Assembly: GCA_964187785.1 (NCBI GenBank)
Contig: OZ076409.1
Coordinates: 61,878,001 to 61,942,000 of the forward strand
Direction of reading: 5' to 3'
From: Amphiscolops sp. MND2022
Lineage: Eukaryota
DNA: 64,000 nt
Both the position numbers and the translations under genes were made by a program. The notes beneath the pieces were generated by a model, which did no database searches, was not told where the DNA came from, and was given only the letters and a program-made list of their open reading frames with translations. Of this stretch, positions 12,540 through 59,640 are shown in pieces (positions within the stretch are counted from its first letter, which is position 1; every line of letters starts with the position of its first letter).

Positions 12540-15500
12540 AGTTAGAGACCACATCAAACATGAAGAAGTCTGCATAAATACACTCCCTACCTCAATACAG
12601 AACGCAATGCGAATAATACAACTCAAGGTCCCGAACCGTTATTCATAGGAATCCTCTATATACCTGATAGTAGAAGTCTCTATCGGATACCAGTGAACGA
12701 ACTTAGAGAAATGTTTGCTTTCCTTCGGGAAAACTGTAAGCCAAATCTCATGCTTGTCGGTGACTTCAACATGCCAGATACAACCTGGGCTACCTACCAA
12801 TCTGCAGACAATTACGAGCAACAAGCAATTGCTTTCAAAGAAGACTGTGGGTTGATCCAGATGGTGAACTTCAAAACCACAAAAAGTTCCTGTTTGGACC
12901 TTGTACTCGTAACTGAGGAATCATTCATAGGTGAAATCGCGGAGAAGGCAGGCATGGAAGGCTTCTCAAATCATATCCCGTTAAATCTTGAATTAACTAT
13001 AAATGCACAAGTTACGAAGATGAGTAAAAGTCAATATTTTAGTTACTGCCGTTGCGACTATGATTCTCTGCTAGCTGAAATGGCTGTTCAAGCTTTCCGG
13101 CCATTTTGTTATAGTAATGTTGATGTAATTGTAAATCTATGGTACCATTGAATTTATTCAATGGTAGATAAATATACTCCAAAAAGGACAAAAAAAACAG
13201 AAATACCCCCCATGGGTATCAAATGAAACATCACACGTGCTGAATAAACTGTAAACTGCTAGACGAAGTCAACGAAAGAAATCTTCTGAGATTTCGAGCA
13301 AAGTAATCCTTCTGGAGGCTAAATGTATGGAACTACAAAAAAGACATAAAGGACTACGAAACAAACCTTTTTGCTGAGAAAAGTGGCGAAAGAATTTTCA
13401 AGTACCTGAAGAGCTTGAAAAAAAACTTTCTCTCGAGGATAGTAAATAACGAAACAAAAGAAATTGCAACTAGCGATTACAACAAAGCAGAACTTTTCAA
13501 AAAGTATTTTGTCTCTTGTAACCGATCCTAAGCAAGTGGAATTTGGGAACATAACCTATATCGATGAACTTGAAATCAGCAAAGATCTACATAGGTTCAA
13601 CGTCAGTAAAAGTCGTGGAGCCGATGGACTTCCCCCAGCCTTTCTACGAGAGACCAGAATAGACATAACGCGGTCGCTGAAACTCTTGTACTCGAACATA
13701 AAAAGACTATCTAAGTTTCCGACTAAATGGAAAGAAGGAATTGTTTCGCCAATCCACAAAGAAAATGAAAGAGTAAATGTTAAAAACTATTGTCCTGTAA
13801 CACTCCTGAGCATAGTTTCGAAAATATTTGAAAAAATCTTGTTTCGGTCAATTGCACCTGCGTTCTTGAACTTCGTTAGCGAATTCCAGTACGGTTTTTT
13901 GCCCAGAAAATCTGTTGTCCTTCAGCTAATTACAAGTCTCTCAAGAATTTATGGAAATTTGAACACTGCCGGCCACGTGAACTTGCTAGCTCTCTTCGAC
14001 TTCTCCAAAGCATTTGATAAGATCAAGCAGGATATTGTACTCAAGAAGTTGACAACTCGGTGTTTCTGAGAAATTTTTTCACTTGCTCCGAGACTACCTA
14101 AACGGCAGAACTCAAAGGGTTAAGATCAACAACAGTCTTTCAGACAAGATGTCCATCACGTCGGGCGTGCCTCAAGGTTCAATTCTGGGACCACTCTTTT
14201 TCCTGATTTACATAAACGACCTACCAAGTGTTGTGTTTTCTCCAGTGGCACTACTGTTTGCGGATGACTTGAAATTGATATATAGTGGTAGTCCAGAGCA
14301 ATTGGAACGCCTGCAAAGTGACATTGATAATTTACTCTCCTGGAGTACCCAAAATTGTCTCCTGTTTTATGCCAAGAAGTGCTCCGTAATTGAATTCGTG
14401 CCTGGAAAAAACAAGAGAAAAACAAACGGTGCCTTAGTACTGGGAAATGAAATCATGAAGCAAACAAGCCGAGAACGGCCAAAGTCGGCGCCATATCCAA
14501 GGCTCAAAATTTAAATTAAAGGGGGCCCTTCGGGCTTTGTGAAACTCCAGCTGGTTGCAAAAAATTTTAAAAAAATTGAAGGGGGGACCCTTTGGAGACA
14601 TGAAAAAATTTCCCAAAAAAATTTTTAAATGAAATTTTTGAACAGTGTCACAGTGCCGAAAAAGGTAAAAGGGGGACCCTTTGCGATTTTTTGACATCCA
14701 TTGTGTTGCAAAATATCGAAACAAATGAAGGGGGGACCCTCTGGTGCATTCCAAAAAACTTCAAAAAAGTCGCATTGTGCCGAAAAAAGGTGGGGCTAAG
14801 GTGGGATCTTTAGTGTTTTCGAGGTTGTGGACGTCTGTTTTGTTTTTTCTTTTCGTTTTGGACGCGCTTCTGAGGTTGAAGTTGTTGAGGTTTGAAGTTG
14901 TTGAGGTTTGAGTTTGTTGAACAAATGAACAAAAAAGTGGACCTTTCGTGTCTAAAAAAACTACCCACTGTAATAGTCGGGCAAATTTTCTACTAAAATG
15001 CGCCGCCGACTAAAAACGTCCTCCAAAGACGTAGGACTCATCATCAATGAATCACTAAGCTGGAAAGAACACGTGGAGTATCGTATGTCAAAAGCCTTAA
15101 AATGTTTATTTCTTCTGAAGAGAGACGCCCATCAATCACTCACCATAACGGCAAAAGTACACCTTTACAGAGCTATCATAAATCCGATACTGTTGCTTGG
15201 TTCTGAATGCTGACAACTGAAAAAAGCTGAGTACAAATTAATCGGAAATTTCAACGCCAAGGCCCTCAAATGGATCTGTGGCAACATGAATTACATTGAC
15301 TCGCTAATTTCGACGAACTCATTGCCACCACTTTATTACAAGATTCTCAAAGACTTTCTGTTGTACAGTAACATCATTAACGACTACTATACAGTTGACC
15401 TTACCGAGCACTATGGAATCAAGCGTGAAGGAAGACGAGAATCATATTACCGACTACCTTTTACGAAGCACAACGTCAAAACATCTGGTACCGAACTGGA

Positions 15501-15670
15501 TTCAGAATCAATATAAACAGAAACACCTTGACTTTTTTATCCGTCTGAACCTGAAACTGAGACTGCTTACTTTGATGTGGAAGTATCTTATATATTATTG
15601 GGCAGACAACAATCCGTGTACTAGGATTTTTGTGTGCCTATGTGAACCATGTCGTGCTAACCCTTGATTT
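12540..15670 (+). mobile_element. Degenerate CR1/L2-like non-LTR retrotransposon ORF2 (APE endonuclease + RT)
   Basis: LVGDFNMPD, SCLDLVL, FDFSKAFDKI, GVPQGSILGP, LLFADDLKL, KDVGLIINESLSW. Frameshifts and stops; split by an insertion at 14462-15016. Ends approximate. Confidence 0.85.
14462..15016 (-). mobile_element. Non-autonomous Helentron-associated (HINE/DINE-1-like) element inserted in the LINE RT
   Basis: Removing it restores MKQTSSKDVG. Minus strand shows T-tract ends, subterminal inverted repeats AGTCGGCG/CGCCGACT and a 3' stem-loop GCCG-TTCT-CGGC. Internal GGGGGACCCT repeats; related end at ~4494-4580. Confidence 0.6.
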
Positions 15671-16851
15671 AATTACGGGAGTTTCTCCCTGTGGCATTTC
15701 CACGAAGCCATAATAAAAATAATATTTTTTTCCTCAAAATGTCTTGCAAAAACAAACGGGGTAGTTCCAATGAAACAATAAACAAAATGAGAATGCCCGA
15801 TTTGGCACAAGCTTCATGGTTCATTAAGAGCAAAATCTTTCAAATATGCTCAATGATTCGAGAATATTTCAGAATATGGTTTTGTCTTGCCTAATTTTCG
15901 AACAACATAAAAGTATAAATCCGACGCTTTCATTTGACATAAAGGCTGCTGGAGAAAGAAATTTTCTAGGTTTGCCTCTTCATTTTCTGGCAACAAGTAT
16001 TGTGGAAACAACGCTGGCTGACGGTCAGTCAGATGAAAATGAAATGTGAGAAATCAAAGCGAATTTGTGAAGAGAAACCGAAAACGAACATATTGTTTCA
16101 GATTTCAGACAACTCTACCGAAGGCAAAAAATGAATACTGGGGTGCGATAAACCATTCCACGGCCTACCTTATACTGGAGTTTGTAAAAAAATCTGAGAA
16201 TAAGTTTTTAGCAGCAATTTCAAAAGATCATAGACGTTGTTTTTCCTTGACTAAGATTAATCCTAGACATTTTAACCCTAGTCTTCAACCTTCAGACGTA
16301 GTTGAAGGATGGACGAAATTTCAAAAATGCACTTTTTACTCTGGCATTTCACGGTTGTTTATTTACAAGATTTAAAAACGATTGAAGCTTCAAATGTTTT
16401 GTCATCGTTCTGAGAAAATTCTGAAGCTTTAGAATAATCACTTCTTTCAAGCAACTTATTTATTTGGTCGAAGCTTTTTCTGGCGTTTCAAAAGATCGTA
16501 GTCGTTTTTTATTGAATGAGATTAAACCTAGACATTTGCAATCTAAGACCAATTTGCAGTTTTATTTAACTCAAACCGACTGATGTTGATATTGCTACAA
16601 TGAACTTGGAAGCAAAATGAATGCTACTTCCGCATGTATTTTTCGGAGACGAAAAGATAAAATGACATGAATGTCAAATTCGATTCCATTAATCTATTAT
16701 AGTAAAATTTGCCAATAATCTTGGACAGTAATTGAAGAAAAAGTACAGAAATCAACATAGACAAAAACCAATTTCGGAAACAAGAAATACAATAATCAAA
16801 GCTTGGGAATTCAATGTTTTCAATTCCGAAAAACTAAAATTTTGCCCCTGG

Positions 16852-19800: not shown

Positions 19801-22800
19801 TCAACTTCAATAACGTCCCTATGGCACAGTGGCCAACACTTATGCCGTGCAATCGGGAGGCTGCAGGTTCGAATCTCTCGGGGGTTTTGGGGTTTTTCTA
19901 AAAGGCGCTCATCATGAAGTTGACTATAGTGGAAAAAAAACTTACTTAGCTGGACTGCAATGCACAATGACTTCGTCATGTGCAAAAATGAGGAACAAAC
20001 AAAAAAATGAGTACCGAGATTGTATGACAATTCGTGATCTTCATATCCAAAATAGGTGGGCGGTTTTCGTTTGCGTCGTGACCTAGCCTCCACGAAACTC
20101 AACTCCTTCTCACTATTGCCAGATTCACTCCTTCTTTTGCCCACTTCTCGCTCTTTCGATCCCTTCGTGCTGGCTTCCGAAGCATCGTCGCTTTCAGAAG
20201 CCAGTGAAGCATCGTCTCCTGCTTGTTCAAAGTTGGGATCTTTCCTTTCGTCTCCTGGTTCATCTACATCACTGCTACTGCTAATATTGACAACGCCACT
20301 CGAATCGGGCTTTTGTTTCTCAGCACCCGGCGAAGACTGCATTTCAGGCTTGGGAATGACTCTCGCTAATTGCACTTTGCATTCAACTGGAAAATTATCA
20401 TCGCTGGAATCGTCCGACAAATCGACAATACTTCCTCCCGGTTTGACAGGGCATTTTGTAGGACTACCGCTGAAGTCAAGTAACCAGTTGTCTTTGGTTT
20501 TGCCGATTTTATCGAAAAGCGATTCATCTTCATTTTCCTTCGAGTCTTGGGATCTGCAAAAAATGCTTTTGAACAGAAAACTTTTTCCTAATGACATTTC
20601 AACACATAAATTTTGTATAATCATGAGTCCTCGAAAACTTGGTACGAGGAATCTCCAACACTTCATTCATCGTTCACCTGACATTGTAGAACTCAGATTT
20701 TTCATTTTCTTGAATTTGAGATTCCTATGGCTTTATGATGTCGAAGGCAAAAACGAACAGCTCAAAAAAGACCAACACTGAAAGAACAAAGCTTTTGAAA
20801 ACTCAAGAACATTTGGTGATTCAAAAATTACAACGCTTTTTTCAGTTCCCGGTGTTTTTTCGTAGCATTATCTCTAGCTTGTGTTACTGAGTTGAGGTAA
20901 ACTATGTGAACCATCATTAATTTTTTATCATTGAAGGCCGCGGCATTATTGAGTGAATTGAGGGCAAAATATGAATGTCAAGAAAAAATTGATTTCAGAC
21001 TTTATGACGACTTTGAATAAAAATTGCGGCGTGTAATCGAATACGGCTTTTAATTTTTTTTCTCAAACCTTAAAAAAATACAAGGGGTCGTGCGCATCGG
21101 GGCCACGTTTTAGGATGGATGATTTTTAAATGTGTAGCCCGAAATTAAATGGTGGGCAGTCTAGAAATGAAGGGTGGCACCGATACGCTCCAAGCCCGAA
21201 GCCTCCCCAGGTGTCAACGACGACCCCCAATAATTTACAATTTTTAGTAAAAAATTATCAATTGAATTAAGCAAGTGGAGGCTCCTAAATTTATCAAAAT
21301 AAAAATAGCATCAAATATAAATGTCTAGCTTGAAAGCACGTCATGTGAATAGCACTAAGGCATTTTATATTAGATCAGCAGTCTACCTTCCTCAACGACA
21401 GTTCCTATCGAGGCTTCAACTATCCCACGACGACGCAGCGAACGCGAGCCACGGATACACAGAATGGAACTTCGCAAAAGCGCGAAGCTGATTTTTGTCC
21501 GGATATAAGTGATGTCCGAGTAGGAATCCTCCTTTTTGTCGCTCAGTTTTCCTGCTATCCGCTTGATTACCTTTGACGCGGATGGGCCTGCTCCTCCAGT
21601 GCAGGAGAAGACGAGCGGATTGAAGGTGGCATGTTCGACTTCTCGGATTCGTTGTTCGTATTTTAGCTTTTTTATTTTTTAGCTGAAAACTGAGGACAGA
21701 GTATGAATGTTCCAAAAGTTTGGATTGACAGCTAGATACAAATTCTCCTCAAAATGAATTGGAAGGAGTCTTACGCAATGGGGTTCTGACATTTTTGGCT
21801 CTGTTGAATAGTCTCTCCACAATGTTGAAAGTCGGCAGTAGTAAAGAGTGAGCTGAACAGAGGGGTATAAAGTGAGGAGTACATGTATTAAGATTGGTTA
21901 TAGGACTAGAAATCCCTTATTTGGAAATTTACAGAAAAGGAGGAGTTCAACGGCCGCCGCCGCCGCCAACGGAATGCCGCCGCCGCCGCCGCCGCCGGTG
22001 ACAGCTGTTGCCGCCGCGGGGACGGATTAAAGTACTTAGGAATGAAAACAATTGTACTAACGAATTGAAACGATTCAAATTAGAGCAATTTCATTGGATC
22101 ACTTCCCTTTTGGCAGTGCAACGAAAAATTCTCATTTAATTTTGCCCGAACACAATTACTAGCTTGTTCTGTACCTTGCAAGTAATGAAACGAAAAATAG
22201 TTTCCGAAAAATCGAACGATTATCCTCGAACCAGCAAAGGAAAAATGGAACAATCTGAACTCTGTCCAACTCCACATCAATCTCCCAATTTCTCTACCAA
22301 CTTGTTCACAAGTTATGTGGATATTGGACCAGAGGAGACTTTAGACTTCGGCACGCTTGCGGTGGCACCTCAGACTTCCAAGTCTTTATCTTTTGGGAAA
22401 TCAGTTCTGGATAAGTACCGACAAACTGGTTTTCTTGCAGACGCACAATCTTCGACTAAATGCTGGGACTTTTCTTGTATACCCGAAAGAACTTTAAGAA
22501 TTTCTATTCCTGCCACTGAAATAAAACATCCAACCAGTAATTGGATACATATTAAAATCTATAAAGAATTTATGGGACAAATGAAGTTTCATCAGCTTCT
22601 GATTCTCTCCACCTGGGAAATGAGGAGAGTGTTATCATCACTCGATGAGGTTTTGCAGGAAGCTCGAAATTTGTTTGAGGAAAACTCGAATGAAATCATT
22701 GTTACGTCCTATACTGCTGAGAATCCTTATTTGAATTTCCCCACGCCATTAGAAGATTCCAAAAGTTGTGCTAAATTTTGGGAACTTTGTGAAACAGCGA

Positions 22801-25800
22801 GACGAAAGATTTGTGCTTCAATGACTGTCTATGACAAAGAAAACTTCTACCGCTCCTATATTCAATTGAAGTTATACACACGAGTCAACACAGAGGACAA
22901 TTTCGTCAGGAAAGGATGTATCAATATGAAAGTGGGAGAAGTATCTAAGTGTCTGAATTCTAAACTGGAGCTGATGGAAACATTCGTCAGGGAAACACTA
23001 GCATTGAATAAGAAACTGACTACGTCTGTCTCTCTTCCTTCTCTGTTTATGTGAATTTTTGTTGAATGATTCATTTTATATATTTATTGTTTCCATTGTA
23101 ATTCATTGTTTGCTCTTCCATTTCAAGTTTTTTCTCCCAGATCTTCAGTTGATCACAACCAGTTAAAATTGAGATCCTATTCTGAATTTTTCTTACCAAT
23201 ACAAGTGAAAGATATTCACATCTGAACGTTGCTATAAAAAATGGATGTAAAGCTTATCAACGAACTGGAAAAGGAAATATCGAATGATTACAGTTTCAGT
23301 AGGAACACCAGAAGAAAGAATTATTTTTTAGCAGCATGCAAATCACTTGATCCGGAAATAAATCTGTTGCAAATAGATGAACAGTCCCCTTTCGGAGGAA
23401 TTATAGGTATTGACGATTCACCTCTTGATCGTGTTCTATCTTTCTCAAAAGTTTTTCGACTTCATGCAGTTTTACATGATGCCTCGGGCTTCATGAAAAG
23501 GGAATTGAATGTAGGACCAGGGTATTGTTATGTATTCAGATTTGATAACAAGTTTCCCAACTTCTGCTTCCTAGGACATTTAACGGGAATCTCCTATTGT
23601 CTATACTTGAAGTTTTTCTTACCATCACTTTTCGAAACAATTCGAGTTTAAAAGTCATTACTTTGACAACTAATGTTATCATACAGTCGTTCCTGTACAG
23701 CAGATATGCAAAATTCCAATAACCCAGTGGTACATACAAAAGAGATAATTTTCGACGATAATAACGAGGAGCGTCAACCTTGGAACGTGTGCGGACGTAA
23801 GTGTTCGAGATCAGCAAGCCTATTCATTATTCAAAGCAGTGTTGTTCTTATATTAATTGTTACTTCTGTCGTCAGTATTCTACTCTCCTCAAGTTGTGAA
23901 GAAACAACCGTTTGGGTAGCTATTTTATCAAGTGTAGTCGGGTACATACTTCCGAATCCACGTCCTTAGATATGAATAAGTTAATTTCCACGGAAGATAG
24001 AGTTTTCATGTCCTTGGTTGGACCATCTGCTTCAGGGAAAAGTCACCTAATATTTCAGATGCTAAAAGCAGGAACTTTCGTTCCCAAATTTGATAAGATT
24101 TTCTATTTTTATCAATTCTTCCAGAACTTGTATATACGGATGCAGCGAGACATAGAGAACATTGAATTCATCGGTAGCTTAGATTTCGACTTCATTGATA
24201 ACTTACCTAATGATGGAACAAAGTACTTATTAATTTTCGATGATTCTTGTGACGAAATTTCACGTTCCAAGAAGTTCGAGAAACTCGCCACTGCTGGAAG
24301 ACATAGAAATTTGAACTGTATTTATGTTAAACACAACCTTTTTCACAAAGCTTCTACTGGTCGCGACACTGAGTTACAAAACACTCACATCATTTTATTC
24401 AAGTCACCAAGAGATGTACAGCAGATTAATGTTCTTGGGAAGCAGTTAGGTCTGGGATCTGACCTAAAACAGTGGTATTCAGATGCAACCTCCAAACCTT
24501 ATGGTCATATTTTGATAGATTTAACACCAAAGACACCCGATCCACTAAGATTTTGTTCAGATATCACTTCATTTCCAACCGTTTTCTATTTACCAAACAG
24601 TAGGTCGCGAGTAACAGAAATAAATGATCAAAAAACTGGATTACTTTACTCTAAAGCTTCTCCTCGACTCCAGTAAAGATTTACAGAAAAGTTTCCTGAA
24701 ACTTTGTTCGAAAGATTTTGTCAGATTTCTCTGCGAATGTTGTAGAAACCTAGTCCATGGAAACTTGAAAGTTGCGAGCAAGATCAAATTGATTCCCTTG
24801 AAGCAAATCATTAAACAATTGATATCTAAAAAGACTAGTTTGAAACAACGTCGATTCCTTTTGGCTTGTGATAAAGGAATTATACTATTCAGATTCATTG
24901 CACAAGCTGTTTTAGATAAATTTCAACATCTTTTCGACAATGGAAAATAATAAATTTGTTTTGATTCCTCTTCATTTATGGAAAGCAGGGAAAACCAATT
25001 TTCAGACAGACCTTTCATCACCTATAGATGTACAAACAGAATCTACCAACGAAAGAATGAGTTTCTTTAATTCCTTACCACAATCGCTCAAGTCTAATAA
25101 AAAGCACTCCCCTTCCAATGATACTTCCAATGATACTAGAATTGTTCAACCTTCTAATAAGCAGTCCAAACTTAAAGAGTATCTCTTGGATGTTTTCAAG
25201 AAAGATTCCAAGGCCAAGAAAATATTAGAAGAACTGTTTTCCAACCCGTCGATCAAATTTTCTAATGGAAACACAATTGTTGTGAATAATACAGACACAG
25301 AAGTCAATGCTCGGGACTTCGTTTATGATTTGAGACATAAGTCAGCTAATTTCAACCCGAGATATTCTATCATTCTGCAACAATTGAAGCTACCATCAAC
25401 ATACCTTGCCAACAGTACCGCTCTAACTGGTGATGATGACAGTTGGATCACTTTCTCTTTCTGAAAGACTCAAACTTACAAAATTATACCGGAACGGACC
25501 GGCAGCGTTCGGTTCAATATCAAATTTAGTTAGACTTAGTGGTCTCTCACGCACGAAAGTCAAACAATTTCTTGATAGTAAAGCGTCATACACCAAATAC
25601 AAAAATCGAATCCGGAAATTTCCTAGACTACATGTTTTTGCCAGGTTCATTGATGACATATGGTGTTTAGATCTGGCACAAGTTGATAAATTATCCCAAT
25701 GGAATTCTCACACAAAATTCCTAATGGTTTGTGTTGACGTGTTTTCACGCTTTATAAGGGTTGAACCTATGAAGAACAAATCTAGTGAATCAACCAAAAT

Positions 25801-28800
25801 GGCTTTTATCAAATTGTGTTCTAATTCGAACAACTTTGTAATTCCGAAACGATTATGGATTGACAGAGGGAAAGAGTTTTTCGGGGACTTTCGATCCTTT
25901 TGTGAAGATGCTGGAATAAATGTGTATCACACTTTTAGCGAAACGAAAGCTAGTTTTGCTGAACGGGCTATAAGGTCGTTGAAAACAATAATTTACAAGC
26001 ATCTGGAGGAAAGTGGGAACTATAATTATTTCCGTAATCTACCGAACCTTGTTGACTGTTTGAATTCGAGGATCAACAGATCAACAGGACTCGCTCCAAA
26101 CAAGGTTACCAATTCTGACTATCTGAAAGTTTTGTATAGACAAGTGAACTTCAGTGACAAGACACCACCATTCCGGAAAGGGGATTTTGTTAGAATAGCT
26201 AAAGTTACTACTTCTTTTTCCAAAGGTTACAAACCTCAGTTCACAGATGAACTTTTTCGAATAATCAATCTTTCAACCAGACAACCTGTTCCTACGTACG
26301 AGCTGGAAGATTTGGAAGGCGAGAAAATTTTAGGTAAATTTTATCATCACGAACTTTCTAAACATATCTCGAGATAAATTTGACTACAAAAGGAGTTCAC
26401 CATTTGTCGATGGAATCTTTTACAATAGAGTTGTAAGCTCTTCCACTCTTCAGCTTCCGGAAATATATTTCGAACCAATTCTTCAGCATCTTTTTCTAAC
26501 CTATTACCAGAACAGCTACATTTGAGTGGCGAATGGGAAGTAGCTGTGACTGAAATAAGCTATCCATCGAAAATTTGTAACATTACTGAGGGAAGATTTG
26601 AAACGTCTATTGTCAGGAAAGGAGTGAAACATCTGGAATACTTCAATCTACAACCTGGATGCTATGACTCCATAGATTCTGTGGTTATTGCATTGATAAG
26701 TAAGGTCTCACAATCTTCACGATATGTGAACTATATAGACAAAGCTTTGCTTAACAATTTAATCACTTGTGAAATTGATCCTGTATCACAACAGCTGAAG
26801 TTAGCAACGATCAAAGATTTCCATTTGGGATTGATAAGCGATGACCTACAACACATTTTTGGTTTCATACCATCAAAATTCGATGTTTTAATTGATCAGG
26901 TTCCTCGAGTTTCCCCCTTAGCTTTCGACCTACAACGAATCCATTCCATTTTACTTTACACTGATTTTATAAATAGTAATATAGTTGGTGACTCCAAAGT
27001 ACCTAATCTTAAAACGTTTGCGATTGAAAAGACGGAAGAGTCAGGAATACGATCGAAAACTTTCATGCAGCTGGACTTCCGAAGAGTACTCAAACATTCA
27101 ATTCATTCTATTTCAGTTGAGTTGAGATCACCTACGGGTGAACTTATTCCGTTTCTATCTTGTGGATACACACGCCTGAATCTGTTATTCAAAAAAGTGA
27201 AAGACGGGAATAGAATCTAGTTTATTTTCATTTTCTCTTTAATTATCTTACAGGATGGATGGTTTTGACAAAATGAGTTATTTTCGTGGTGTACCGAGAC
27301 AACGTGGGAGAGGATTAGGAGCCTTTGCAGGAACAATTGCTAGGACAACTTTTCCTATTTTACGAAAGTATGTTTTACCTGTAGCGAAGAAGTTAGGAAG
27401 AGATGTCATAGAATCGACGATTCCTGAACTCGATCAAGTTATCAAGGGAAAAGCTTCTATCAAAAAAGCAGTGAAGCGTACTGCTAAAGCCACTGCAAAA
27501 AAACAGTTTGGAGGAGGAAGAGTGAAGAGAAAGTCGAAACAGAGAAGAAAAAGAGGATTGAAGAAAAAAATCATTAAACAGAAAGCTCAGAAACAACGCA
27601 GTCGGGACGATTTTTTTAAAAACGTTACCTAGAATAATGTCCATTCCCAAGACAATGACTCACTCTTCTTTGGATCTGTTCGAACGAGTACCAATTTTGG
27701 AACCAATCGAGTGGTCCAACCTTCAGAAAATATATCCCACAAATTCTCTCAATGAATCTTCACTCGAATTTAATTTTGCAACGGACCGAAACGTCATGAT
27801 TGACTTACAAGAAACTTTCCTATATTTGAAAATAAAAATTGGTAAAGGAACTGCAGACTTAGACGGAACTGACGATGTTATGTTTGTCAACAATACAATG
27901 CATTCGCTTTTCTCCAATTGTGAAGTTTTCTTCAACAACGAACAAGTTTACACATCTAACGGTCTTTACCCACACAAAGCTTTTGTTTCTAATGAGTTCT
28001 CTGGTACCAAGGGAACCAAGGAATCTATATCGTTTTGTCAAGGTTATGACTATGAAAAAGATCCGTCTGCTTTTGGAGAAGAACCTTTTGTCACTAGAAA
28101 AGGGAAAAAGAGTGATACTGTTGCTTTCTACGGGAAGTTATGTGTTGATATTTTCACTTGTGACAAGTTTTTACTCCCTAATGTTAATGTACGGTTACGA
28201 TTGGTTCGTTCGCGACCAATTTTCTATTTAATTTCACAGCAGAATAAAAATTTCATCGGTAAAATCTTGGAGGCGACACTTTTCGTTCGACAAGTTGCTG
28301 TCGAAGATCGAATTTATAAAGATCTCCACAACACTCTCCAGCTACGAGCAGCGCGGTATAATTTTTCTGAAATTTTAGCGAAATCTTTCATAATACCCAG
28401 CGGACAGAACCAGTATATTCATGAAAACATTTTTAATAATGCTCCAATTAGACGTTTAGCAATTGCAATGAATGTCAATACTGCTTTCACTGGAACTTTG
28501 AAGACTAACCCGTTTCATTATCAAAAGTTTGGTCTCAGTTCCTTACGATTGGTTCGAGGAAGCCAGGTTGTTGTCGATTTGGATACTACTCAAAATGTTC
28601 AGTCTTACATCACGTCAATGAGAGCTCTCAGATTCGATGAAGATGGTCCTGGTATTCCTCTTGAGGATTACGATAATCATTTTGTACAAGTATTCGACCT
28701 CACGTCTACCCAAGAAGCTAACGTTCAAATCTATTACCCTGATGTTGTCGCCGCTAGTCTTAGATTAGAATTGAAATTCACAACTCCTATCACTGCAGCA

Positions 28801-31800
28801 ACCGAGGTAGTTATCTTCGGGGAGAGAATTTCTACAATATTTATTGACAAGAACGGTTCAGTTGTTAAAAATGGATAACGATCATTTATCACGAATCATT
28901 TCCAGATTTGGTATTTTGAAGTACAAGTATCTTGGTTCCTTCCCAGCAGATATGATTCCTGAAATTATTCCTCATAATACTTTTTTCATCTGTAACACCG
29001 ACACCAGCAAGAGACCTGGAGTGCATTGGGTGATGGTTGCGAATTGTCGGGGAAAAATTTTTTTCGGAGACTCTCTTGGTAATTTACCAACCTACTACAA
29101 AACTATTCAACTCAATCCTAAGAAATCGATTAAAGTTTTGAATCGTTTAACTCTACAGAAGCGAGATCTCTGCGGACTTTATTGTATCTATTTTGCCTAT
29201 TGTTTGTTTTCTAACTTTTTAATGTATGATGTGAATGATATTTTTATTCTCAAATTCTTTGCAGAAGTTTTATAATGTGTGACGGTTTTGTAAACTTTCT
29301 TCATAAACTGCTATTTAAATTGTCTGTGAACCTTAATTTAACTATTTTCTAAAATTTTTTTTGCTATTCACCAACAGTTGAATTTCTAACGTACAGCACA
29401 TCAATCAATGAAATTAGTTACTCAATAGAACAGTAATAAATACAAATGAAAACTATAAAACAGTTCAAAAGCTATCCTCGCTAATTTCGGAATACCGACG
29501 TCTCCGGCTTGATCTGGGAGCTTGCGGCATCGGGATTTCCACTCTGTTTTGTGGCGTAACTGACCAGTCTTGTCCATGGAGGTCCGTAAATGGCTCGTTG
29601 TTGTGATGGTGGGGTGTTGAAAATAGTAGAGGAATTGTCAGAAAAGAGAATCGGGCTCTCGCTTCTCTCTTCTGCTTCCTCCACTCCCCAGAAGGAACGA
29701 ATCCACTCTCTTTCTTCCAGTTCGTGCTCGACATTCTCCCTGACTTTCTTTCTGTTCAAATGGAACACTGCGAAGTCTTCCCTAATTTTCAGTGGTAGAG
29801 TCCTCTCGTCTCGTACCTTTGTAACATTTAACGAATGTTCCGCAGCATCCCCCGACGTTTTGAACTCCCCTGCTACTTCGGCTCTGACTCCGTTGGGGAT
29901 TTCGTTGCTAGTGTTTAGGTTCCCCAGCCAACGATGTTGCATCCGAAAAAGAGCTTCCGGCAACACACAGCTTTCGACAATCTCTTCTGAGTTATCGTCA
30001 GGTTTAATTGTTAGGATTCGCACTTCCTGCGTGTCAACGTGGAAGTAGATAAATAGATCCCGAGTTTCAAATTCTGTGTTGAGCATTCGATAAACAGGCA
30101 TAATGGTGAAAACTCGGGAGTTAAATATTCGCGATTGAATTTCGAAGCTGATTTACAGACCAAAATTTAGATGATTTGTGAAGATTTGTGAAGAAGTTTG
30201 AGATTGAATTTCGGAGCAGTTGGAGATTATGAATAAATTACCTCCACCAATCACAGTTCGTTGTTGTGATTGTGCGCCATCTAGTTCTTGCAAACCAACA
30301 AACTCATGAAAGGTTCCAAATTTGAAAGTTTGAATGAATTAGGAATAAATTACCTCCACCAATCACAGTTTGTTGTTGTGATTGTACGCCATCTAGTTCA
30401 TGCGAAGTAACAATTCCACGGAAGGCGCCATATTTGAAAGATTGAATAAATTAGGAATAAATTACCTCCACCAATCACAGTTCGTTGTTGTGATTGTACG
30501 CCATCTAGTTCATGCGAAGCAACAATATCATGGAAGGCGCCATATTTGAAAGTTTGAATAAATTAGGAATAAATTACCTCCACCAATCACAGTTCGTTGT
30601 TGTGATTGTACGCCATCTAGTTCATGCAAACCAACAATTTCATGGAAGGTGCCAAATTTGAAAGTTTGAATAAATTAGGAATAAATTACCTCCACCAATC
30701 ACAGTTCGTTGTTGTGATTGTACGCCATCTAGTTCATGCAAAGCAACAAATTCATGGAAGGTACCAAATTTGAAAGTTTGAATAAATTAGGAATAAATTA
30801 CCTCCACCAATCACAGTTCGTTGTTGTGATTGTACACCATCTAGTTCATGCAAAGCAACGAATTCATGAAAGGTACCCAAATTCAAACTTATAAAAATTG
30901 AGGAAATACTTTGGCATGGAATAAATTGAGAATAGAATGGCTTGCGGTAGTCTGGATCTGTTTCCTGCTTTCTTCGAAAAATATATTAAAAATTCGTTTC
31001 TTCTCTTAGTCTCTGATTATCCTATTGACCTCACCGAATTCGAACAATACTCAGTATCAATTCACAATTCAAATTTCTGTAATTCTCCCAATTGTCAGTA
31101 CCATATTCTAGTTTACAGCACACATCTCAGTTCTTCAGATTTATCACTCCAGTGCAATTTCTCTTATCAGAGTGTAGACTGTCTTTTCACGGTCTTCAAG
31201 TTTTATTTCATGAAGATACTAGAATTGAAAGGATTCATTTTCCAAAAACTTTTGTCAGCAATCGACTTCCATAAATATCTCCCGTCTCCAGTCCTAACAA
31301 GTTTCAGTGTGTCCAAAAAAAGACTTCTTCGGAAGAAATTCAAAACTAAGTCTAGAAAATCAACATTGATTTCTCCCAGAGCTCCCGAAACTTGAACTAC
31401 TGCAATTCTTCTCTCCAAAATAAGTTTGATATTGTTATCTAGCAAACGAGAAGAATTACTTGAAACTATTGATCGGATATCCAAATCTTTATAGTTTCTC
31501 AAAATGTCTCATAGAGAACTAAAACAATGTCCCATTTGTTCCAAGTTTGTTGGAAGCAATAACTTTGCACGTCATAAAAAGATTCATCAGTTTCAATGTA
31601 GCAAATGCTCCTCATCGTTTGCCAAAGAGGAGAAACTTTCTCGACACTTTCTTGCTAAACACTCAACGTCTAGTTTCGTGTGCTCTATCTGTAATTTACC
31701 GTTTCTTACGTTCAACCGTTTGAGTTATCATAAACGTCAAGTACATGGAAGAGTGGGAAAAATACCAATCGATCAAATTGATTTATCTGAATTTGGTGAG

Positions 31801-34800
31801 GAGGATCCAAAATTATTGGAAGAACTTCGATCTGTGCAACATTTCCTGGTTGATTCAAAATTGAAGTTGAAGAAGAAAACGATTTACAATTTCCGATTAA
31901 CAGAGTTCAATCCTATCTTGATTAATGAGAAACTGCGAGAAGTATTCCTGAATCTGAACTGTGCAGTTAAGTTGAATCTATCTTTTGGATTTGTTCTCCA
32001 TGACAGAATTGAAAGTGGTGAATACAGATACTACTATGCAGCTGACAATAACCCTATTTTTCAAACACCTATTACTCTTGAGAATGAAAGTGATTTATTG
32101 ACATTACAGAGTCGAATAGAACAGGAAAATTTTCTCCATGATTGTGTCGTGCATCGTCCGAATACCAAATGGAAGTTTGCTCTCTTAACAAACTTGACAG
32201 TTTTTCTTTATCATTTAGAGAAGATTCCCCTTGGTTGTTCGGTAGTTAACCTTCCTCAAGCAATAATCAAAAACCCTAACATTCGAACGTTTCTGGTAGA
32301 TGGAAACAAAAAACCTTATGATGACAACCTGTGTTTCTTCAGAGCGGTTGCGTTCGAAGTATTTGGAAAAAGAGATCTCGTCACCTCTACGAATTCTTTA
32401 GTCTCGACTTTCTTATCTCGAATTGGTAAAGAAATTGTTCATTTCAAGGGGATACAGACAAATGAAATTCAAGTTGTTGAGAACATTATTGGAATGAATA
32501 TTTCTCTGTTCTCAATTTCTTTTGATGAGCAGGGTAATCTCGTCGGTACTTTATCTTATCGTTCCCTGATGTCGTATGAGAAGTCTTTTTCTTTACTTCA
32601 ATACGATAATCATGTTTGCTGGGTTAAAAACATTGATCAATTTTTGAAGAAGTACCGATGTGATCATTGCGATAAATTTTTCCCGAAAGTCTCTAACTAC
32701 CAAAGACATCTCACTGTTTGTACTGATCGAGTTTCTCATCGTTATCCTAAAGGACCTTATCAATTGAAGGAGACTATTTTCGAAAAATTGACAAACTTGG
32801 AAATTCCAGTTCAAGAGTTTCTGTACGAAAATTTGGTCGTATTCGACTTCGAATCTATTACTGTACCTGATTCTACACTCCCTAACTCTGAGATGACTCG
32901 TTATATTGGAAAACACGTTCCTATTAGTGTATCAATTTTCTCCAACTTGTTATCAGAACCTATATTCATATGCAATTCAGATCCTCGTCTCCTGGTAAGC
33001 AAATTCATCGAGGAATTGGTAATTCTTTCACGATCTAGTTCCCAACAACTCCGTCAATTATTTCAGAAAAACTTCGAAGCTTTAGATGAGAAACTACAAA
33101 TTAACGAGTGTAGTTCTGACGACAGTCCGGGAGAAGACAAGAACAGTAAAAAAGAGAAGAATCTTCTCCTTCAAGTCAAGACCGATTTAATTGTATATTG
33201 TGATAATCTTCCTGTATTCGGATTCAACAGTTCACGTTACGACCTCAATCTTATCAAAGAACCCCTTCTCGATATTCTTCTGAATGATTACCAGTGCACT
33301 CCGTCGGTCATCAAGGTTTGCAACAAGTACATTGGTATGAACTTTTTGGGATTACAATTCATGGATATTCTCAATTTTTTGGGAGGCGCAACTTCATTAG
33401 ATAAGTTCCTCAAAGCATACGGCGCTTCCGAGGAGAAAGGATTCTTTCCTTATGAATGGTTAGATACTGTCGAAAAACTCGAAGTGAATCAGCTACCAGA
33501 TATTAGTTCTTTCTATAGTGAGCTTAAGAAAGTGAATGTTCTTGAAGTCGACCAGAAACAGTACAATGAACTTCTTTCTCGTGGAATATGTTCCAAAGAT
33601 GCTCTCAAGAAACTTGGACTGTCATCGGTTCCCAAAGGAAAAGAAGAAAACTATGAAGAATTGCAGAAACTTTGGGAACGGGAAAAAATGCAGTGCTTCA
33701 AAGATTATCTGAAATGGTACAATAACAAGGACGTTGTTCCCACACTCGAAGCGTTACAGAAAATGTTGAACTTCTACCATTCCCAAAACATTGATATGTT
33801 GAAACTGGGTTTGACGCTACCTAATTTATCGAACAGAATTCTCCATTCAACGACTACTGCTAAGTTCTTTCCTTTCAATGAGACTGACAAAATCTACGAT
33901 GATTATATTCGGTCATGGTTAACAGGTGGACCATCCATCATCTTCACAAGATATGCTAAAGTTGGAGAAACACGAATCAGGAACAGTAATAACGTGTGTC
34001 GGTCAATTGTGGGAATTGATGCCAGTCAATTATATCCTTTTTCTATGACAAAAGATATGCCGACTGGTGTTTACACTAAATGGGAAATGAAAACTGAAAC
34101 TGGAAAGTTTCATCCTCGGCGAAACCAGAAAAACTTTCTGGAGTATGTTGTTCTGGAATTCTTACAAATTAAGTATCCAAACTGTAAACTTCGCACACAA
34201 TTCAACCACAAATCCCAGAAACGTATAGGAAAGTACCTTGTAGATGGATACTGTTCTCATTGTCGGACTGTTTTCGAAGTTCTGGGATGTTACTGGCACT
34301 TTTGCAATTGTCAAGACAAAAACCGGCTCTCTTTATCTGCCCTAGAAAATGGAGCAAAACGAAGAAAGTTTGATGAAGTTCGTCGTATTTATCTCACCGA
34401 AGCTGGTTATAATATTAAAGAGGTTTGGGAGTGTGAATGGTGGAAGCAAGTTCGTGAGAATGTTGATGGTGCTGGAGACTTCATGCGACAATGCTATCCT
34501 TATCAGAATCCATTAACCGAATCTGAGATGCTGGAGGATATCAAAACTGGGAGACGCTTTGGTGTAATCGACTGTTCAATTGAGGTTCCCTGTGACTTAC
34601 GAGCTAAGTTCGATGAGTTTCCTCCAATCTTCAAGAATTTTTACGTTGGATTGCAAGACATTGGTGCACATAGAGATTTTGCTGAGAAAAATCATATCCT
34701 GAAAAAACCTCGGAGGATGTTGATTTCAAGTTTTCATTTATCAAAAGGACCACTAATAACTCCACTTTTACAGTTTTATCTAGAAAAAGGACTCGTCGTA

Positions 34801-37800
34801 TCGAATGTTACGTGGTTCATAGAATACACTCCTCGAAAGTGTTTCAAATCTTTTGTTGACACTGTTGTTGAAGCCAGGCGAGAAGGAGACAAGAACAAAA
34901 ATTCTTCGGTGGTGGCAGAAACAATGAAACTTATCGCCAACTCATCGTATGGATATCAAATAATGGATCGTTCGCGACACACTACCACAAAATATGCCAA
35001 CGAAGAAAAGGTGAACAAACTCATTAATGAAAGCAAATTTAAAAGTCTCAATGTACTGTCCGCAAACATTTTTGAGGTTGAACTCATCAAGCCTGTAGTA
35101 GAACATAAAGAACCTATTATTGTTGGTTTCTTCATCCTTCAGTATGCTAAATTGACGATGTTACAATTGTATTATAATTTTTTCCAGTTATTTTGCGATC
35201 CTCAGAAGTTCGAACTTATTGAAATGGATACTGATAGTCTCTACATGGCTTTGGCTGGAGAAACTTTGGAAGATATAATCAAACCCGAAATGAAGTTGAT
35301 ATGGGATTTAAGTAGACAAGACGATTGTCGGGATGATTTTGCTGCGAACGGTCACTCAAACTTTTCCCCCAGGAACTGTTGTAACAAACATTGGGTTTTC
35401 GATCAACGCACACCGGGACTATTTAAAGAAGAGTTCAGATGTACTGAAATGGTAGCCCTCTGCTCGAAAACTTATTGTTGCTTCGATAGTTCCAGTAATA
35501 CAACTAAACTTAGTTGCAAAGGATTGAACAAGCATGCCCTAGTAAATGATGAACCTTTGCAGAAGTATCGTAAGGTGTTACAGAAAGAGTCCGTTGTTAC
35601 CACAAACAGAGGTTTCCGAGTTGTTAAAAACAGTGTTGCCACGTACGAATTGAAGAAGAATGGACTTTCATACTTTTATCCGAAAAGACAAGTGTTGTCC
35701 GACGGAATTCATACGAAAGCATTGGATATTTAATAATTTTGATTAGTTCGTATTTCCTTCATGAATCTTTTGCTGTTTGATTTAAATTTATGTTCCAATA
35801 AAGTTCTTGGTGTGAATTGTTTTTGTTCAGTGAAGATGAATTTTCAACAATGTTTCATAAAATTGATCTTTGTTCACTAAATAAAAACTCATTTTTCACA
35901 GTTTCAGTCCAATATTTCATTAATTATGAACATTTTCGTATACATTTTGACCGTTTTGCCATGAAAAACAACTTTTTTTCGTGTTTTTTGACAATTTGTC
36001 GATAGAAAACGACCGTTTTTTAAAATGAAATTAGATGTTTTCACCAAATAAAAATTCATTTTTCGCTTTTTAGATCAATTTTTCGTTAACTTCACCCACT
36101 TTTTCTTGAATTTTGCCCGTTTTTCTATTAAAAACAACATTTTTTCATGTTTTTCGATAATTTTTCAGTAGAAAACAGCCGTTTTCACCAAATAAAACCA
36201 TTTCCCCCGATTCTTGACTGTTTTTCATGAATTTTGAACGTTTTTTCGTGTTCTCCGATAATTTTTCAACAGAAAACAAACATTTTTTGAATGAAATTTG
36301 ATGTTTTCACCAAATAAAAGTTGATTTTTCTCTATTTTAGACCATTTTTTTGCTATTTTTAACCACTTTTCCATGAATTTTGTGCAGTTTTCCATTAAAA
36401 ACAACCTTTTTTCGTGTTTTTCGATAATTTTTAAATAGAAAACGACCATTTTTTGATTGAGATTTGATGATTTCACCATATAAAAACTCATTTTTCTCCA
36501 TTTTAAACCAATTTTTTGTTAATTTTATCCACTTTTTCATGTATTTTGACCGTTTTTTCATTAAAAAAAAACTTTTTTTCTTGTTCTCCAATAATTTTTC
36601 AATAGAAAACGACCGTTTTTCGAATAAAAATTAATATTTTCACTAAATAAAAGTTCATTTTTCTCCATTTTAGACCAATTTTTGTTGATTTCAACCTCTT
36701 TTTCATGAATTTTGACCGTTTTTTTATAGAAAACAAGCTTTTTTTTTCGAGTTTTTCGATAATTTTTCAATGGAAAACGACCATTTTTTGAATGACATTT
36801 GATGTTTTCACCAAATAAAAGGTCATTTTTCTCTATTTTAGACCAATTTTTTGATAATTTTAACCACTTTTCCATGAATTTTGAGCAATTTTCCATAAAA
36901 AACAACCTTTTTTTCGTGTTTTTCGATAATTTTTCAATAGAAAACGACCATTTTTTGAATGAGATTTGATGTTTTCACCAAATAAAAACTCATTTTTCTC
37001 TATTTTAGACCAATTTTTTGTTAATTTTAACCCCTTTTTCATGAATTTTGACCGTTTTTTCATAAAAAACAACCTTTTTTTCGAGTTTTTCGATATCTTT
37101 TCAATAGAAAATGACCATTTTTGAATGAAATTTGATGTTTTCACCAAATAAAAGTTGATTTTTCTCTATTTTAGACCATTTTTTGCTAATTTTAACCACT
37201 TTTCCATGAATTTTGAGCAATTTTTCATTAAAAACAACCTTTTTTTCGTGTTTTTCGATAATTTTTCAATAGAAAACGACCATTTTTTGAATGAGATTTG
37301 ATGATTTCACCAAATAAAAACTCATTTTTCTCCATTTTAAACCAATTTTTTGTTAATTTTATCCACTTTTTTCATGTATTTTGACCGTTTTTTCATAAAA
37401 AAACAACTTTTTTCTTGTTCTCCGATACTTTTTCAATAGAAAACGACCGTTTTTCGAATAAAAATTAATATTTTCACCAAATAAAAGTTCATTTTTCTCC
37501 ATTTTAGACCAATTTTTTGATAATTTTAACCACTTTTCCATGAATTTTGAGCAATTTTCCATAAAAAACAACCTTTTTTTCGTGTTTTTCGATAATTTTT
37601 CAATAGAAAACGACCATTTTTTGAATGAGATTTGATGTTTTCACCAAATAAAAACTCATTTTTCTCTATTTTAGACCAATTTTTTGTTAATTTTAACCCC
37701 TTTTTCATGAATTTTGACCGTTTTTTCATAAAAAACAACCTTTTTTTCGAGTTTTTCGATATCTTTTCAATAGAAAATGACCATTTTTGAATGAAATTTG

Positions 37801-40800
37801 ATGTTTTCACCAAATAAAAGTTGATTTTTCTCTATTTTAGACCATTTTTTGATAATTTTAACCACTTTTCTATGAATTTTGAGCAATTTTTCATTAAAAA
37901 CAACCTTTTTTTTTCGTGTTTTTCGATAATTTTTCAATAGAAAACGACCATTTTTTGAATGAGATTTGATGATTTCACCAAATAAAAACTCATTTTTCTC
38001 CATTTTAAACCAATTTTTTGTTAATTTTATCCACTTTTTTCATGTATTTTGACCGTTTTTTCATAAAAAAACAACTTTTTTTCTTGTTCTCCGATACTTT
38101 TTCAATAGAAAACGACCGTTTTTCGAATAAAAATTAATATTTTCACCAAATAAAAGTTCATTTTTCTCCATTTTAGACCAATTTTTGTTGATTTCAACCT
38201 TTTTTTCATGAATTTTGACCGTTTTTTCATAGAAAACAAGCTTTTTTTCGAGTTTTTCGATAATTTTTCAATGGAAAACGACCATTTTTTGAATGACATT
38301 TGATGTTTTCACCAAATAAAAGGTCATTTTTCTCTATTTTAGACCAATTTTTTGATAATTTTAACCACTTTTCTATGAATTTTGAGCAAATTTCCATAAA
38401 AAACAACCTTTTTTTCGTGTTTTTCGATAATTTTTCAATAGAAAACGACCATTTTTTGAATGAGATTTGCTGTTTTCACCAAATAAAAACTTATTTTTCT
38501 CTATTTTAGACCAATTTTTTCATTAAAAAAACAACTTTTTTTCGTGTTTTTTGATGATTTTTCCAATAAAAATATCCATTTTTCATAAAAATTGACATAT
38601 TCAAACAAATATAAACTTTTTTTTTCAAATTTTAAACTAAATTTTCAAACTCGTTTTCACGAAAAAAGAGTAAAACCCGTTGTGTTTTATCGAATTTGAG
38701 TACATTGAGTTGATGTCTCTGATGTTGGGAGCGCGGGGGGGCCCCACCCCCTTATATACATGGGGGTGTATACCCCGCGGTCGGCGTGATATGACTGGCC
38801 TATAGCTGTAACGATTAAGACTCATTCCGAGACGTCACGATAACACACCCTTAGCGCTATAGGTTAACATATACTCAATAAAACTTACTTAAGCTTCAAA
38901 ATGGAATTGAACGAGATAAAAGCTATGTGATAGAATTAATCTCTGATTCTTGAAAAATCTAAGTTTTCGATTCTTACTTACATGTTCTTGTTCACTTAAA
39001 AGTATTATGCTCAATACTTGTTCCCACCGGATGTTACTGATAATAGTTTTTCTAAATCGATGAATCTTCACTTACATAAATACTGGTTCGATTATATTAT
39101 ACTAAATTCCTGGCGGAACGAATAACTTTCAATACTAAACTAATTCTTGTTGAGTGAGTTTCCCGTACTTAGCTACTAGTTGCAAAATTCAGCCAGCACT
39201 TGTACTGGATTAAGTGAGTCATGAAACCTTGGGAAGCGTCCTTTACTGGACTACTGAAAGTAACATATCAGCGAACACTTGTGACGGATTGAGTCAACCA
39301 AAACTAATTGAAGAGACACTGCTGACTTTCATTCAACCTACAGTATACAGTAGTAAACTTACAGTAGTAATCCGCGAAAGAGAATATTCATGAAGGGAAT
39401 GAAAAGTGAATGAACGTTTGAGTCGCAGTGAACATGACAGGTTAGACTTACTGATTCTCTAAACTGTCTAGTAAACCGTGAAAGAGATCATTCAATAAAA
39501 TAATTATCGAAAAATATAAATTAATAATAGTTTCATTTAAAAGCTTCCCATGACTTTGAAATGAGTATAAAACTTGTTTATAGCCTCAATTCGCATCAGG
39601 GTAGCCTTTAAAAAGGCTGGGTTTTTGATGATTGAAAAATTATTGGAGGGGATCATAAAGCTGTCCTTCCCTACAATGTGGGCATGAAACTAACATTGTT
39701 CCACACACTTTGGAACAGCAAACTTTCCTACAAGTGGTGCATTGCAACCACTCACACCAACATGCTGAATTGAGAGTCATACATATCCAACAGTGATTGT
39801 GCTTGTTCTGTAAACAGTCATGATGACCAGACTCTCTATGTTGTTCATCTTTCGTAGACAATCTTTCTTTGAATACTGCTGGCATTTTTGGAACAATGAG
39901 GGAACAAATTTCAGACGTTCCCTTATATTCTTCTCAAACACTCCAGATGTTGGATTAGGTCTTTTCATTATCAGGTGTGAAAACTTGCCTTTGAAATAAT
40001 CGCGTACTTAGAGCAACCTACTGTGAAAGTTACTTTGGACTACCTAATTTAATACAATCGATTCTTAGTTAATCATGTTAATACCAATTTTATTCAGCTT
40101 GATACCAAATTAGTACGTTTTGATAATGAGTGATTAGATTTTACGTTGATACAAGTGATAACGCTTGTACTCAATTAATTGTAATTTGGTAAACTTGTAT
40201 ATACTTCAACTAATGTTTACAATATCTTTAATCCGTCCCCGTGGCGGCAACAGCTGTCACCGGCGGCGGCGGCGTTCCGTTGGCGGCGGCCGTTGAACTC
40301 CTCCTTTTCTGTAAATTTCCAAATAAGGGATTTCTAGTCCTATAACCAATCTTAATACATGTACTCCTCACTTTATACCCCTCTGTTCAGCTCACTCTTT
40401 ACTACTGTCGGCGTTTAGACGTATAATAAAGATAGAGACGTTATTCCTGTTTAAAAAGGCTTTCTGAAAATGAAAGTATCAAAATGTGAGGCATATGCGG
40501 TGTATGCACGCTCACCCTCACCGTCGCAAATACCTCTCACATCATACCTCTACAATTTGAATAGTAAGATTTCATGATGTTTTGTATCAGAAGCGAAGAT
40601 TTTCATAGATCTAATAACATGGAGGATCCAAAGGGGGATTACGGCTTTTAAATGGGTGCTGTCATATTACGAATAAATATGGTGCTGTCATCGTCACCTG
40701 TTGATGCAATTTTCAATTACAACATTTTGAAGAATTAAACTTGGAGATTTGAACGAAACATATTCAAACTTCCCTATAACTTACAGTCGACTTCGGCTAA

Positions 40801-58300: not shown

Positions 58301-59640
58301 AAATGCATCTACCAGTGCCTCTACGCTTTCTGAATCCTTCTTGGCTGTCATCGATGAGCCCTTTTGCCTCCAAGTCATTTCTCAATCGTCTCTCTATTAT
58401 GCGTTCAAACAGCTTTCCTACGTAGGAAGTGAGTGTATTTGGTCTGTAACTGTTTGCGATATTATTGTCTTCTTTGTGAGGTTTCTGGAGGAAAATGACT
58501 TTGCCTAAATTCCAAATGTAGGTGCCTGCATGTAAACAGAGGTTAAAAAGCTCGAGACAGGCAATTTTGAAAAAAGTTCCGGTGTGACGAAGCATGCGTG
58601 GATGTATGCCATCTGGGTCGGAGGACTTCATGCTTGTTTGAGATTCCGTCAGAGCTTTGTCAAGCTCTTTTTCGCTTATCTGTATGCTCGGTTGTTGCAC
58701 ATAATCCGGATGAAAGTTTGCCGTGAGTTTGTCATCGACATTTCTCAGCCAAGATTCGTCAAACATTTTTCCGTGGAGGGGACTGTCGGAGCAAAACGTA
58801 GAGCGAAGATGTTCAAATTTATCAGCGTTACTATATAGAACTTTGCCATTTGAAATCAGACATTCCTTTGGTATTGTTTCTCTGGTATGAGCAAACAAAT
58901 ATTTGGCTTTCCAGAAATCTGAGCCCTTGCTGGCATTTAGGGTTTCTGCACAAGTTTTATAATGCTCAGCTTTGGACTCCATCAAGGTAGTCTGAAAATG
59001 TTGTTTGAGCGTTTCAAAATTGAAGGTGTTTATGGGGTCCGATCTGATTTTCATTATTTTCCTCGCTTTTCGGAGTTGAAGTGAAAGCATTTTCAACTCT
59101 TCATTAAAGTAAGGCTTTGAGTGTGAAGTTATTGGCTTGAGATGTATAGTAAGATTGGCTGCTTCGCTGATACATTTCAGCAAGATGTCCCATAGTCATG
59201 TAGCATCATAGCAATCGTCAATTTCAGGCCATCACGTTTGAACGCAATTTTTCTAGGGTTTCCCTCCATTTTTCCCAATTGGTTTCCTTGAGGTCTTTTA
59301 CATGAGTGGATCTGCTGTTTCCTGCGATGTTGAATGTGGCAATAACTGGGCAATGGCCTCTGTTTGGGGCGCCAGTGTACATTTCAGTGTAATAGTCTAT
59401 TGCGAGGCCGCAAAAAAGCCTGTATAGATTGGCGTTGCATAAAACCAAGTCGATTACACTTTTTCCGTTTGTGCATATGAATGTGGGCTCCCCATCGTTA
59501 AGAGCAATGAGTTCTTCTTGTTGTAGGAAATGGTTCAAAATTTCCCCTTGAGAATTGTTTTGTCGCCCCAGCTTGGGTGTCTTGCATTGAAGTCGCCAAG
59601 TAGAAGAAAATTGGACACGCCCAAATCTTCTCCATTTTTT
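46330..59640 (-). mobile_element. Head-to-tail tandem array of ~5 defective non-LTR ORF2 units (APE + RT), ~2.56-kb period
   Basis: Junctions at ~49423, 51981, 54538, 57097. Motifs VNINGL, LGDFNARHPSWG, SVIDL, GLPQES, KYADD. Only the last unit has the C-terminal SPLCIC...HFIFYC knuckle. Confidence 0.9.

Follow-up and report, generated by a model that had tools for sequence, protein, structure and literature searches.

A 112-bp tandem array between divergent genes of an Amphiscolops Maverick as a possible multiplied promoter module

Background

The 72-bp repeat of SV40, the duplications of polyomavirus control regions and the repeats of cytomegalovirus are reiterated enhancers of animal DNA viruses, a type also known from retroelements, in which factor modules lie head to tail in a bidirectional control region and vary in unit length and number. 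CTCF and YY1 have also reportedly been found to control a DNA virus (PMC6219814). Tandem arrays occur as well inside mobile elements, as transposon-borne satellites and minisatellites. To our knowledge, the promoters of animal Mavericks have been little studied. Baculovirus hr regions, as described in PMC4535591, are built from several conserved units that contain one palindrome of about 24-30 bp apiece; they recur at many sites of the genome, serve as origins and enhancers and depend on the IE1 transactivator.

Here we describe a tandem array in the window, the whole 64,000-bp (64-kb) stretch of Amphiscolops sp. MND2022 DNA that was analysed. It lies inside a Maverick/Polinton of the animal, adintovirus type that shares with its relatives the AGTAGT ends, 6-bp target-site duplication (TSD), terminal inverted repeats (TIRs), pPolB, rve integrase and A32 ATPase, as well as the order of the putative capsid and protease-like genes, and that differs in having inside it a 112-bp array flanked by divergent orphan genes. 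The literature listings and abstract openings that were searched describe no array of this kind for animal Mavericks. Among the systems mentioned above, the array would work most like the reiterated viral enhancers, from which it differs in having six copies of 112 bp.

Results and discussion

The host element

The element is an ordinary Maverick (Table 1). Its AGTAGT...ACTACT ends and perfect 6-bp GTCGGC duplication agree with the (AGT)2//(ACT)2 ends and perfect 6-bp TSD by which such elements are recognised in PMC8097293, and a single substitution and two short indels are all that distinguishes its two TIRs (about 195 bp). Pfam searches of 15 element ORFs matched DNA_pol_B_2 (7.7e-17, pPolB), rve (3.4e-10, integrase) and Pox_A32 (1.8e-07, packaging ATPase) and gave no match for a capsid or a cysteine protease. 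The labels capsid, penton and protease are putative ones, given from motifs and gene order; homologues of the capsid and protease lie beside integrase and ATPase genes, in the same order, in related loci.

Eight ORFs of the element were found in clusters of 9-36 near-identical proteins, with at least 24 distinct contigs among the matches listed, and full-length proteins of sister copies (5 capsid and 11 integrase members compared) are 98-99.7% identical, which points to a recent expansion of the family. A sister family has 78% identity in the capsid. The sole organism-named capsid homologue among the 120 matches listed is from the acoel Convolutriloba (38%), and single-protein locus searches with the capsid and with pPolB gave nothing in viral contigs. 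Maverick capsid genes were also seen in bacterial genome bins from invertebrate-associated samples (loci L202-L209), probably as animal contamination.

Table 1. Coordinates of the Maverick/Polinton, the array and the neighbouring features in the window
Feature	Position	Strand	Remarks
Left 6-bp TSD GTCGGC	21831..21836	+	Read from sequence
Whole Maverick/Polinton	21837..40406	.	18,570 bp; AGTAGT...ACTACT ends; Pox_A32, rve, DNA_pol_B_2
Left TIR	21837..22032	+	TATAAA at 21866 and inverted CCAAT inside
Left divergent gene, orphan	29465..30101	-	206 aa here, against 213 aa for the majority of sister copies
Left flank, older degenerate duplication	30128..30218	+	Two GATTGAATTTCG words; 1-mismatch half site TGAGATTG at 30199
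Tandem array	30226..30883	+	TRF: period 112, 5.9 copies, 93% matches
Conserved 57-bp core, unit 1	30231..30287	+	AATAAA, CCAAT, palindrome, CGCCATCTAG; recurs every 112 bp
Palindrome CAATCACA-N9-TGTGATTG	30248..30272 (unit 1); also 30360, 30472, 30584, 30696, 30808	.	
CGCCATCTAG	30275..30284 (unit 1); also 30387, 30499, 30611, 30723	+	YY1-like 7/8, CTCF-like 11-12/14
Second YY1-type word CGCCATATT	30426..30434 (unit 2), 30538 (unit 3)	+	8/8; absent from units 1, 4, 5, 6
CACCATCTAG	30835	+	Unit 6 counterpart of CGCCATCTAG
TATAAAA box	30890..30896	+	Directly after last array unit; 47 bp before ATG at 30937
Right divergent gene, orphan	30937..31395	+	Stops at 152 aa here; 185 aa in 8/12 cluster members
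pPolB	31504..35733	+	1409 aa; C2H2 fingers, three in number, near the N-terminus (residues 9-81)
Right TIR	40226..40406	-	Pairs with left TIR
Right 6-bp TSD GTCGGC	40407..40412	+	Read from sequence

Several other features of the element were recorded. A 167-bp A/T-tract satellite follows pPolB (36241-38520; about 14 copies with 21/42-bp sub-periods), and its presence indicates that the element tolerates repeat expansion. A 136-aa Maverick ORF (23241-23651), which presumably bears a phospholipase-A2-like LHD motif, has homologues of 39-51% identity in the related loci L125, L128 and L135. A penton-like frame at 26370-27250, devoid of an annotated ATG ORF in the window copy, corresponds by homology to the gene that related loci have between their integrase and capsid genes. 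On the minus strand, a Cys-rich 81-aa ORF (39640-39885) is followed, 17 nt beyond its stop codon, by a look-alike of the histone-type 3' stem-loop (39579-39623; 6-bp stem, UUUA loop, then ACCC), which scores 20.4 bits against the Rfam Histone3 family, below the gathering score of 34, and was absent from seven related loci searched with Rfam and from 89 searched by pattern. Outside the element, the window contains about five tandem copies of a 2558-bp unit with reverse-transcriptase fragments on the minus strand (46800-59100), a small foldback element that lies in a host intron and has tandem 16/32-bp arms (5258-5662), and exons of a host gene (6580-6936 and 10235-10534) that we take, from its translation, to be D-amino-acid-oxidase-like. 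The host genes in the window are split by introns, in keeping with an animal host.

The divergent gap

In the initial annotation the array was placed between the minus-strand ORF at 30101 and pPolB; the flanking genes are indeed divergent, but the right neighbour proved to be an orphan ORF at 30937, with pPolB starting at 31504. Both flanking genes are real. The left one has 13 matches among 1.84 billion representatives, two of them near full length (38-39% identity, with the same MPVY start), and the right one has 19 matches among 148 candidates, many of them 45-58% identical and with a MACG start. Both are damaged in the window copy, where the left gene departs from the sister frame after about residue 175 and ends in a C-terminus unlike that of 10/14 members. 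Given that the genes are real and that the start codons of both are kept in a diverged sister family, the 835-bp gap is a true head-to-head region, 79% of which is array.

Neither orphan protein could be assigned to a family or a fold: the structure models were too poor to search with (pLDDT 50 and 45.5), the Atlas matches were leads under 0.9 only (e.g. XLF-like, 0.83), and a PC4-like fold for the left protein was unsupported. An ORF on the plus strand at 29590-30048 was treated as a shadow and is missing from the protein collection. A 13-nt match of the core within the left gene (29595-29607) was rejected as a small-RNA target, given that 9/115 control pieces match as long.

Array units and the conserved core

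The description of the array in the initial annotation, with six 112-bp units, an inverted repeat with an N9 spacer in each, and a following word that varies in unit 6, was confirmed throughout: CAATCACA and TGTGATTG occur in 6/6 units at 30248/30265 plus multiples of 112, followed by CGCCATCTAG in units 1-5 and its variant in unit 6. The more general pattern C[AG]CCATCTAG occurs six times in the 64-kb window, always inside the array. Units differ by 3-15% (mean 8%) and are 82-97% identical as a whole, which argues against a CRISPR-like array with unique spacers.

Also borne out was the claim that the palindrome half is nearly invariant while the other half drifts. Over all units, 3 of the 57 columns from 7 to 63 are variable, as compared with 21 of the 48 columns from 64 to 111, and the corresponding numbers for the internal units 2-5 are 1 and 11. 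When shared changes are counted once, there are 3 distinct substitutions in the 57-column core and 18 in the 49 other columns, with the core boundary picked after the data had been seen. A permutation test in which every possible block of columns was tried and the best one taken gave p = 0.041 for units 2-5, 0.020 for units 1-5 and 0.0002 for all six, the last value being inflated by the ragged ends of the array. These results are consistent with selection on the core, which might also bind proteins and activate transcription.

Stop codons close the frames in every unit, and the four short array ORFs are absent from the protein collection. Four units fold no better than shuffled sequences (z-scores -0.36, -0.86, -0.11 and 0.79; the last partial unit reached -2.74) and no Rfam family matches within the array, which speaks against an array of small RNA or miRNA hairpins.

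The repeat in sister copies and in related Mavericks

In a set of 367 proteins from the collection, four result from frames that run out of the array and on into the right gene; they come from two other contigs, with two proteins apiece. One has a core identical to that of the window over 19 residues, which is no more than the 92% identity of the adjoining part of the gene predicts. Judged by the numbers of residues, the repeat advances in these proteins by 112 bp or by about 100-101 bp, and the shorter step would have been left without one of the two GAATAAATTA words. The read-throughs at other loci thus make the array a family feature with variable unit length, and the mean difference of 8% between units, as against the 98-99.7% identity of sister proteins, indicates that the array predates the family's recent expansion and was passed on during it. 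In the read-through copies the last unit is altered. It has four residue changes in the core, no TATA word and no start codon, implying, if the translations are read back, loss of the CG of CGCCAT, of one palindrome base and of the TATA word, and these copies look decayed.

Capsid-profile scans yielded 89 loci of related Mavericks, one scan contributing the best 80 of 328. Among the 34 loci in which the capsid gene is followed by 750 bp or more, DNA that may include host flank, five had arrays of period 40-300 and 29 had none; among the 55 with at least 750 bp before the capsid gene, a single locus had an array. The arrays of L123, L136, L192, L199 and L204 resemble the unit of the window no more than shuffles do (130-437 of 500). 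Five such arrays in 34 loci show that non-coding arrays are recurrent in Mavericks, being neither universal nor homologous. In the distant Maverick L199, an unrelated 92-bp array (15311-15740) repeats a YY1-type GACGCCAT-TT near an AGTAGT...ACTACT junction. Two different Mavericks, L136 (6081-6360) and L204 (11020-11190), have arrays just after the protease gene with a common repeated word, CACCCGTAAG.

In a pattern scan of metagenome contigs, the palindrome together with CGCCATCTAG gave no match. The palindrome alone was found at 120 or more single-site loci in viral contigs, many of them from one unrelated coding context, GATTG-N-CGCCATCTAG at 98 single-site loci, with a longest alignment to the array of 30 nt, and CCAATCACAGTTCG at none of 307 loci.

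A proposed tandemly amplified promoter or enhancer module

The reading that we tentatively place first is that of a promoter/enhancer module which was amplified in tandem and is recognised by host factors; divergent conserved genes around the array, together with a conserved core, point to a multimerised cis-regulatory module, and to this extent the multimerised enhancer proposed in the initial annotation is supported as the leading reading. A module of about 100 bp, with a CCAAT-overlapping palindrome and a YY1-type CGCCAT word, would have been duplicated head to tail and lengthened to 112 bp by an 11-bp internal duplication. Six sets of sites would thereby lie upstream of the TATA box serving the right orphan gene and pPolB, and the other end of the array, near the start of the left orphan gene, would make the promoter bidirectional. 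Host transcription factors on the repeated cores may then raise or time the transcription of both units, much like the reiterated enhancers of a range of animal DNA viruses.

The YY1-type and CCAAT/palindrome sites are the best candidates for factor sites. Motifs were scored against consensus strings (an IUPAC string for CTCF), and taken one by one the named motifs are weak. The YY1 consensus CGCCATNTT is matched at 7/8 in the core of units 1-5 and at 6/8 in unit 6, but 92/1000 shuffles reach 7/8 too. A perfect match (8/8), which 2/1000 shuffles contain, is located at the second site in the variable half, and in 2/6 units only. All seven matches to CGCCAT.T[TA] in the 18.6-kb element fall in the array, and YY1 is of metazoan origin or older, according to PMC7535936. 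The NF-Y string RRCCAATSR is matched at 8/9 in all units and also in 440/1000 shuffles, the last CCAAT being 83 bp before TATAAAA. The 8-bp palindrome is no more than modestly unusual, being reached by 90/2000 shuffles and 8/248 pieces of the window, and its presence in six units is one event copied six times.

In favour of a promoter module are the position of the array, whose gap is the only one to separate two start codons that the sister family has kept, the conservation of the core (p 0.02-0.04), the age of the array, which is older than the family spread and persisted through it, the confinement of YY1-type words to the array within the element, the TATAAAA that follows unit 6, and the occurrence of the repeat at further loci, together with the YY1-type word of the L199 array. 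Against it are the cheapness of the motif matches (NF-Y, YY1 at 7/8 and the palindrome), the apparently altered core in the last unit of the decayed read-through copies, the 29/34 related loci without an array and the other five whose arrays share no sequence with the unit, and the 167-bp satellite in the same element.

Alternative explanations

The last of these observations is also what one would expect if the array were a neutral minisatellite, an explanation that we consider rather unlikely. Slippage at the GAATAAATTA microhomology, or unequal exchange there, would have multiplied a 100-bp piece of spacer, and short conversion tracts centred on a hairpin would homogenise the palindrome half, which would look conserved as a result. 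The 11-bp direct repeat at the unit junction, the inferred step of about 100-101 instead of 112 bp in read-through copies, the second satellite, the unrelated arrays in 5/34 related loci and a core-conservation p of only 0.02-0.04 all fit this proposal, and transposon-borne satellites are likewise tandem arrays inside a mobile element. The window array seems to differ from them in that half of the unit is selectively conserved and in that it fills a divergent promoter gap, and neutrality does not readily account for a 660-bp insert that persisted in that gap through the family expansion, for changes concentrated in one half of the unit or for a YY1-type word confined to the array.

The perfect spaced palindrome in 6/6 units has the geometry of a homodimer site, and the array could consist of operators for a dimeric regulator that the element itself encodes in one of the flanking orphan genes; the divergent units would then be under an autoregulatory switch. 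Both flanking genes are orphans peculiar to the family and have been conserved along with the element, and a further half site lies beside the left gene, but neither orphan has a DNA-binding family, a solved relative or a usable model, and the palindrome has a chance level of 3-4%; we regard such an array as improbable. We give similarly little credence to its fuller form, in which the six palindromes would be operators of an orphan-encoded dimer in a phage-style bidirectional switch of an integrated animal Maverick. If this were true, a variable number of operators would set the onset of the polymerase unit and the exit of the element from latency. Binding by the zinc fingers of pPolB, another early suggestion, is not supported: three fingers are present, but nothing links them to the palindrome.

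Ten AATAAA hexamers, all on the plus strand and none on the minus strand, raise the question of a multimerised poly(A) signal or read-through stop that would shield the pPolB unit from plus-strand transcription coming out of the capsid block. A density of two hexamers per 112 bp is seen in 16/2000 shuffles, and the conserved block begins at AATAAA, followed by CA and a GU-rich run. The two hexamers nevertheless stem from a single 11-bp duplication, one per unit is found in 280/1000 shuffles, an AATAAA at 29435 already belongs to the capsid block, and one read-through copy is apparently without hexamers at one junction, all of which makes this function very improbable.

The likeness to CTCF sites on which an insulator array between the two transcription units had been proposed did not hold up well. 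The match is 12/14 in unit 1 (3/1000 shuffles) and lies within the conserved core, but it falls to 11/14 in units 2-5, a level reached by 57/1000 shuffles and 14/248 window pieces, and to 10/14 in unit 6, and the leading CC is missing in all six. CTCF is moreover absent from cnidarians, flatworms and some nematodes, as stated in PMC10658182 and PMC8851819, and the literature searched, PMC9680502 and PMC7555945 included, gave no information on CTCF in acoels. An insulator is thus hardly to be expected here.

Least probable of all is that the array is a replication origin within the element, or a packaging signal, comparable to baculovirus hr regions or adenovirus A-repeats: the 25-bp palindrome with 8-bp arms in 6/6 units resembles the hr description in PMC4535591, but the array is a single locus, placed centrally with 8-9 kb of the element on each side, with no second copy in the element or window, no IE1-like Pfam match was found among the 15 ORFs scanned, and the protein-primed pPolB and intact TIRs point to terminal-protein-type replication initiated at the ends.

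Conclusions

The transcription control of integrated animal Mavericks is barely documented in the searchable literature. Should the array be neutral, it would be one more transposon-borne minisatellite. If it is instead a control region, it would provide a compact 57-bp element and two orphan genes at the place where the replication genes switch on, and the sister copies would supply natural variants in copy number and length.
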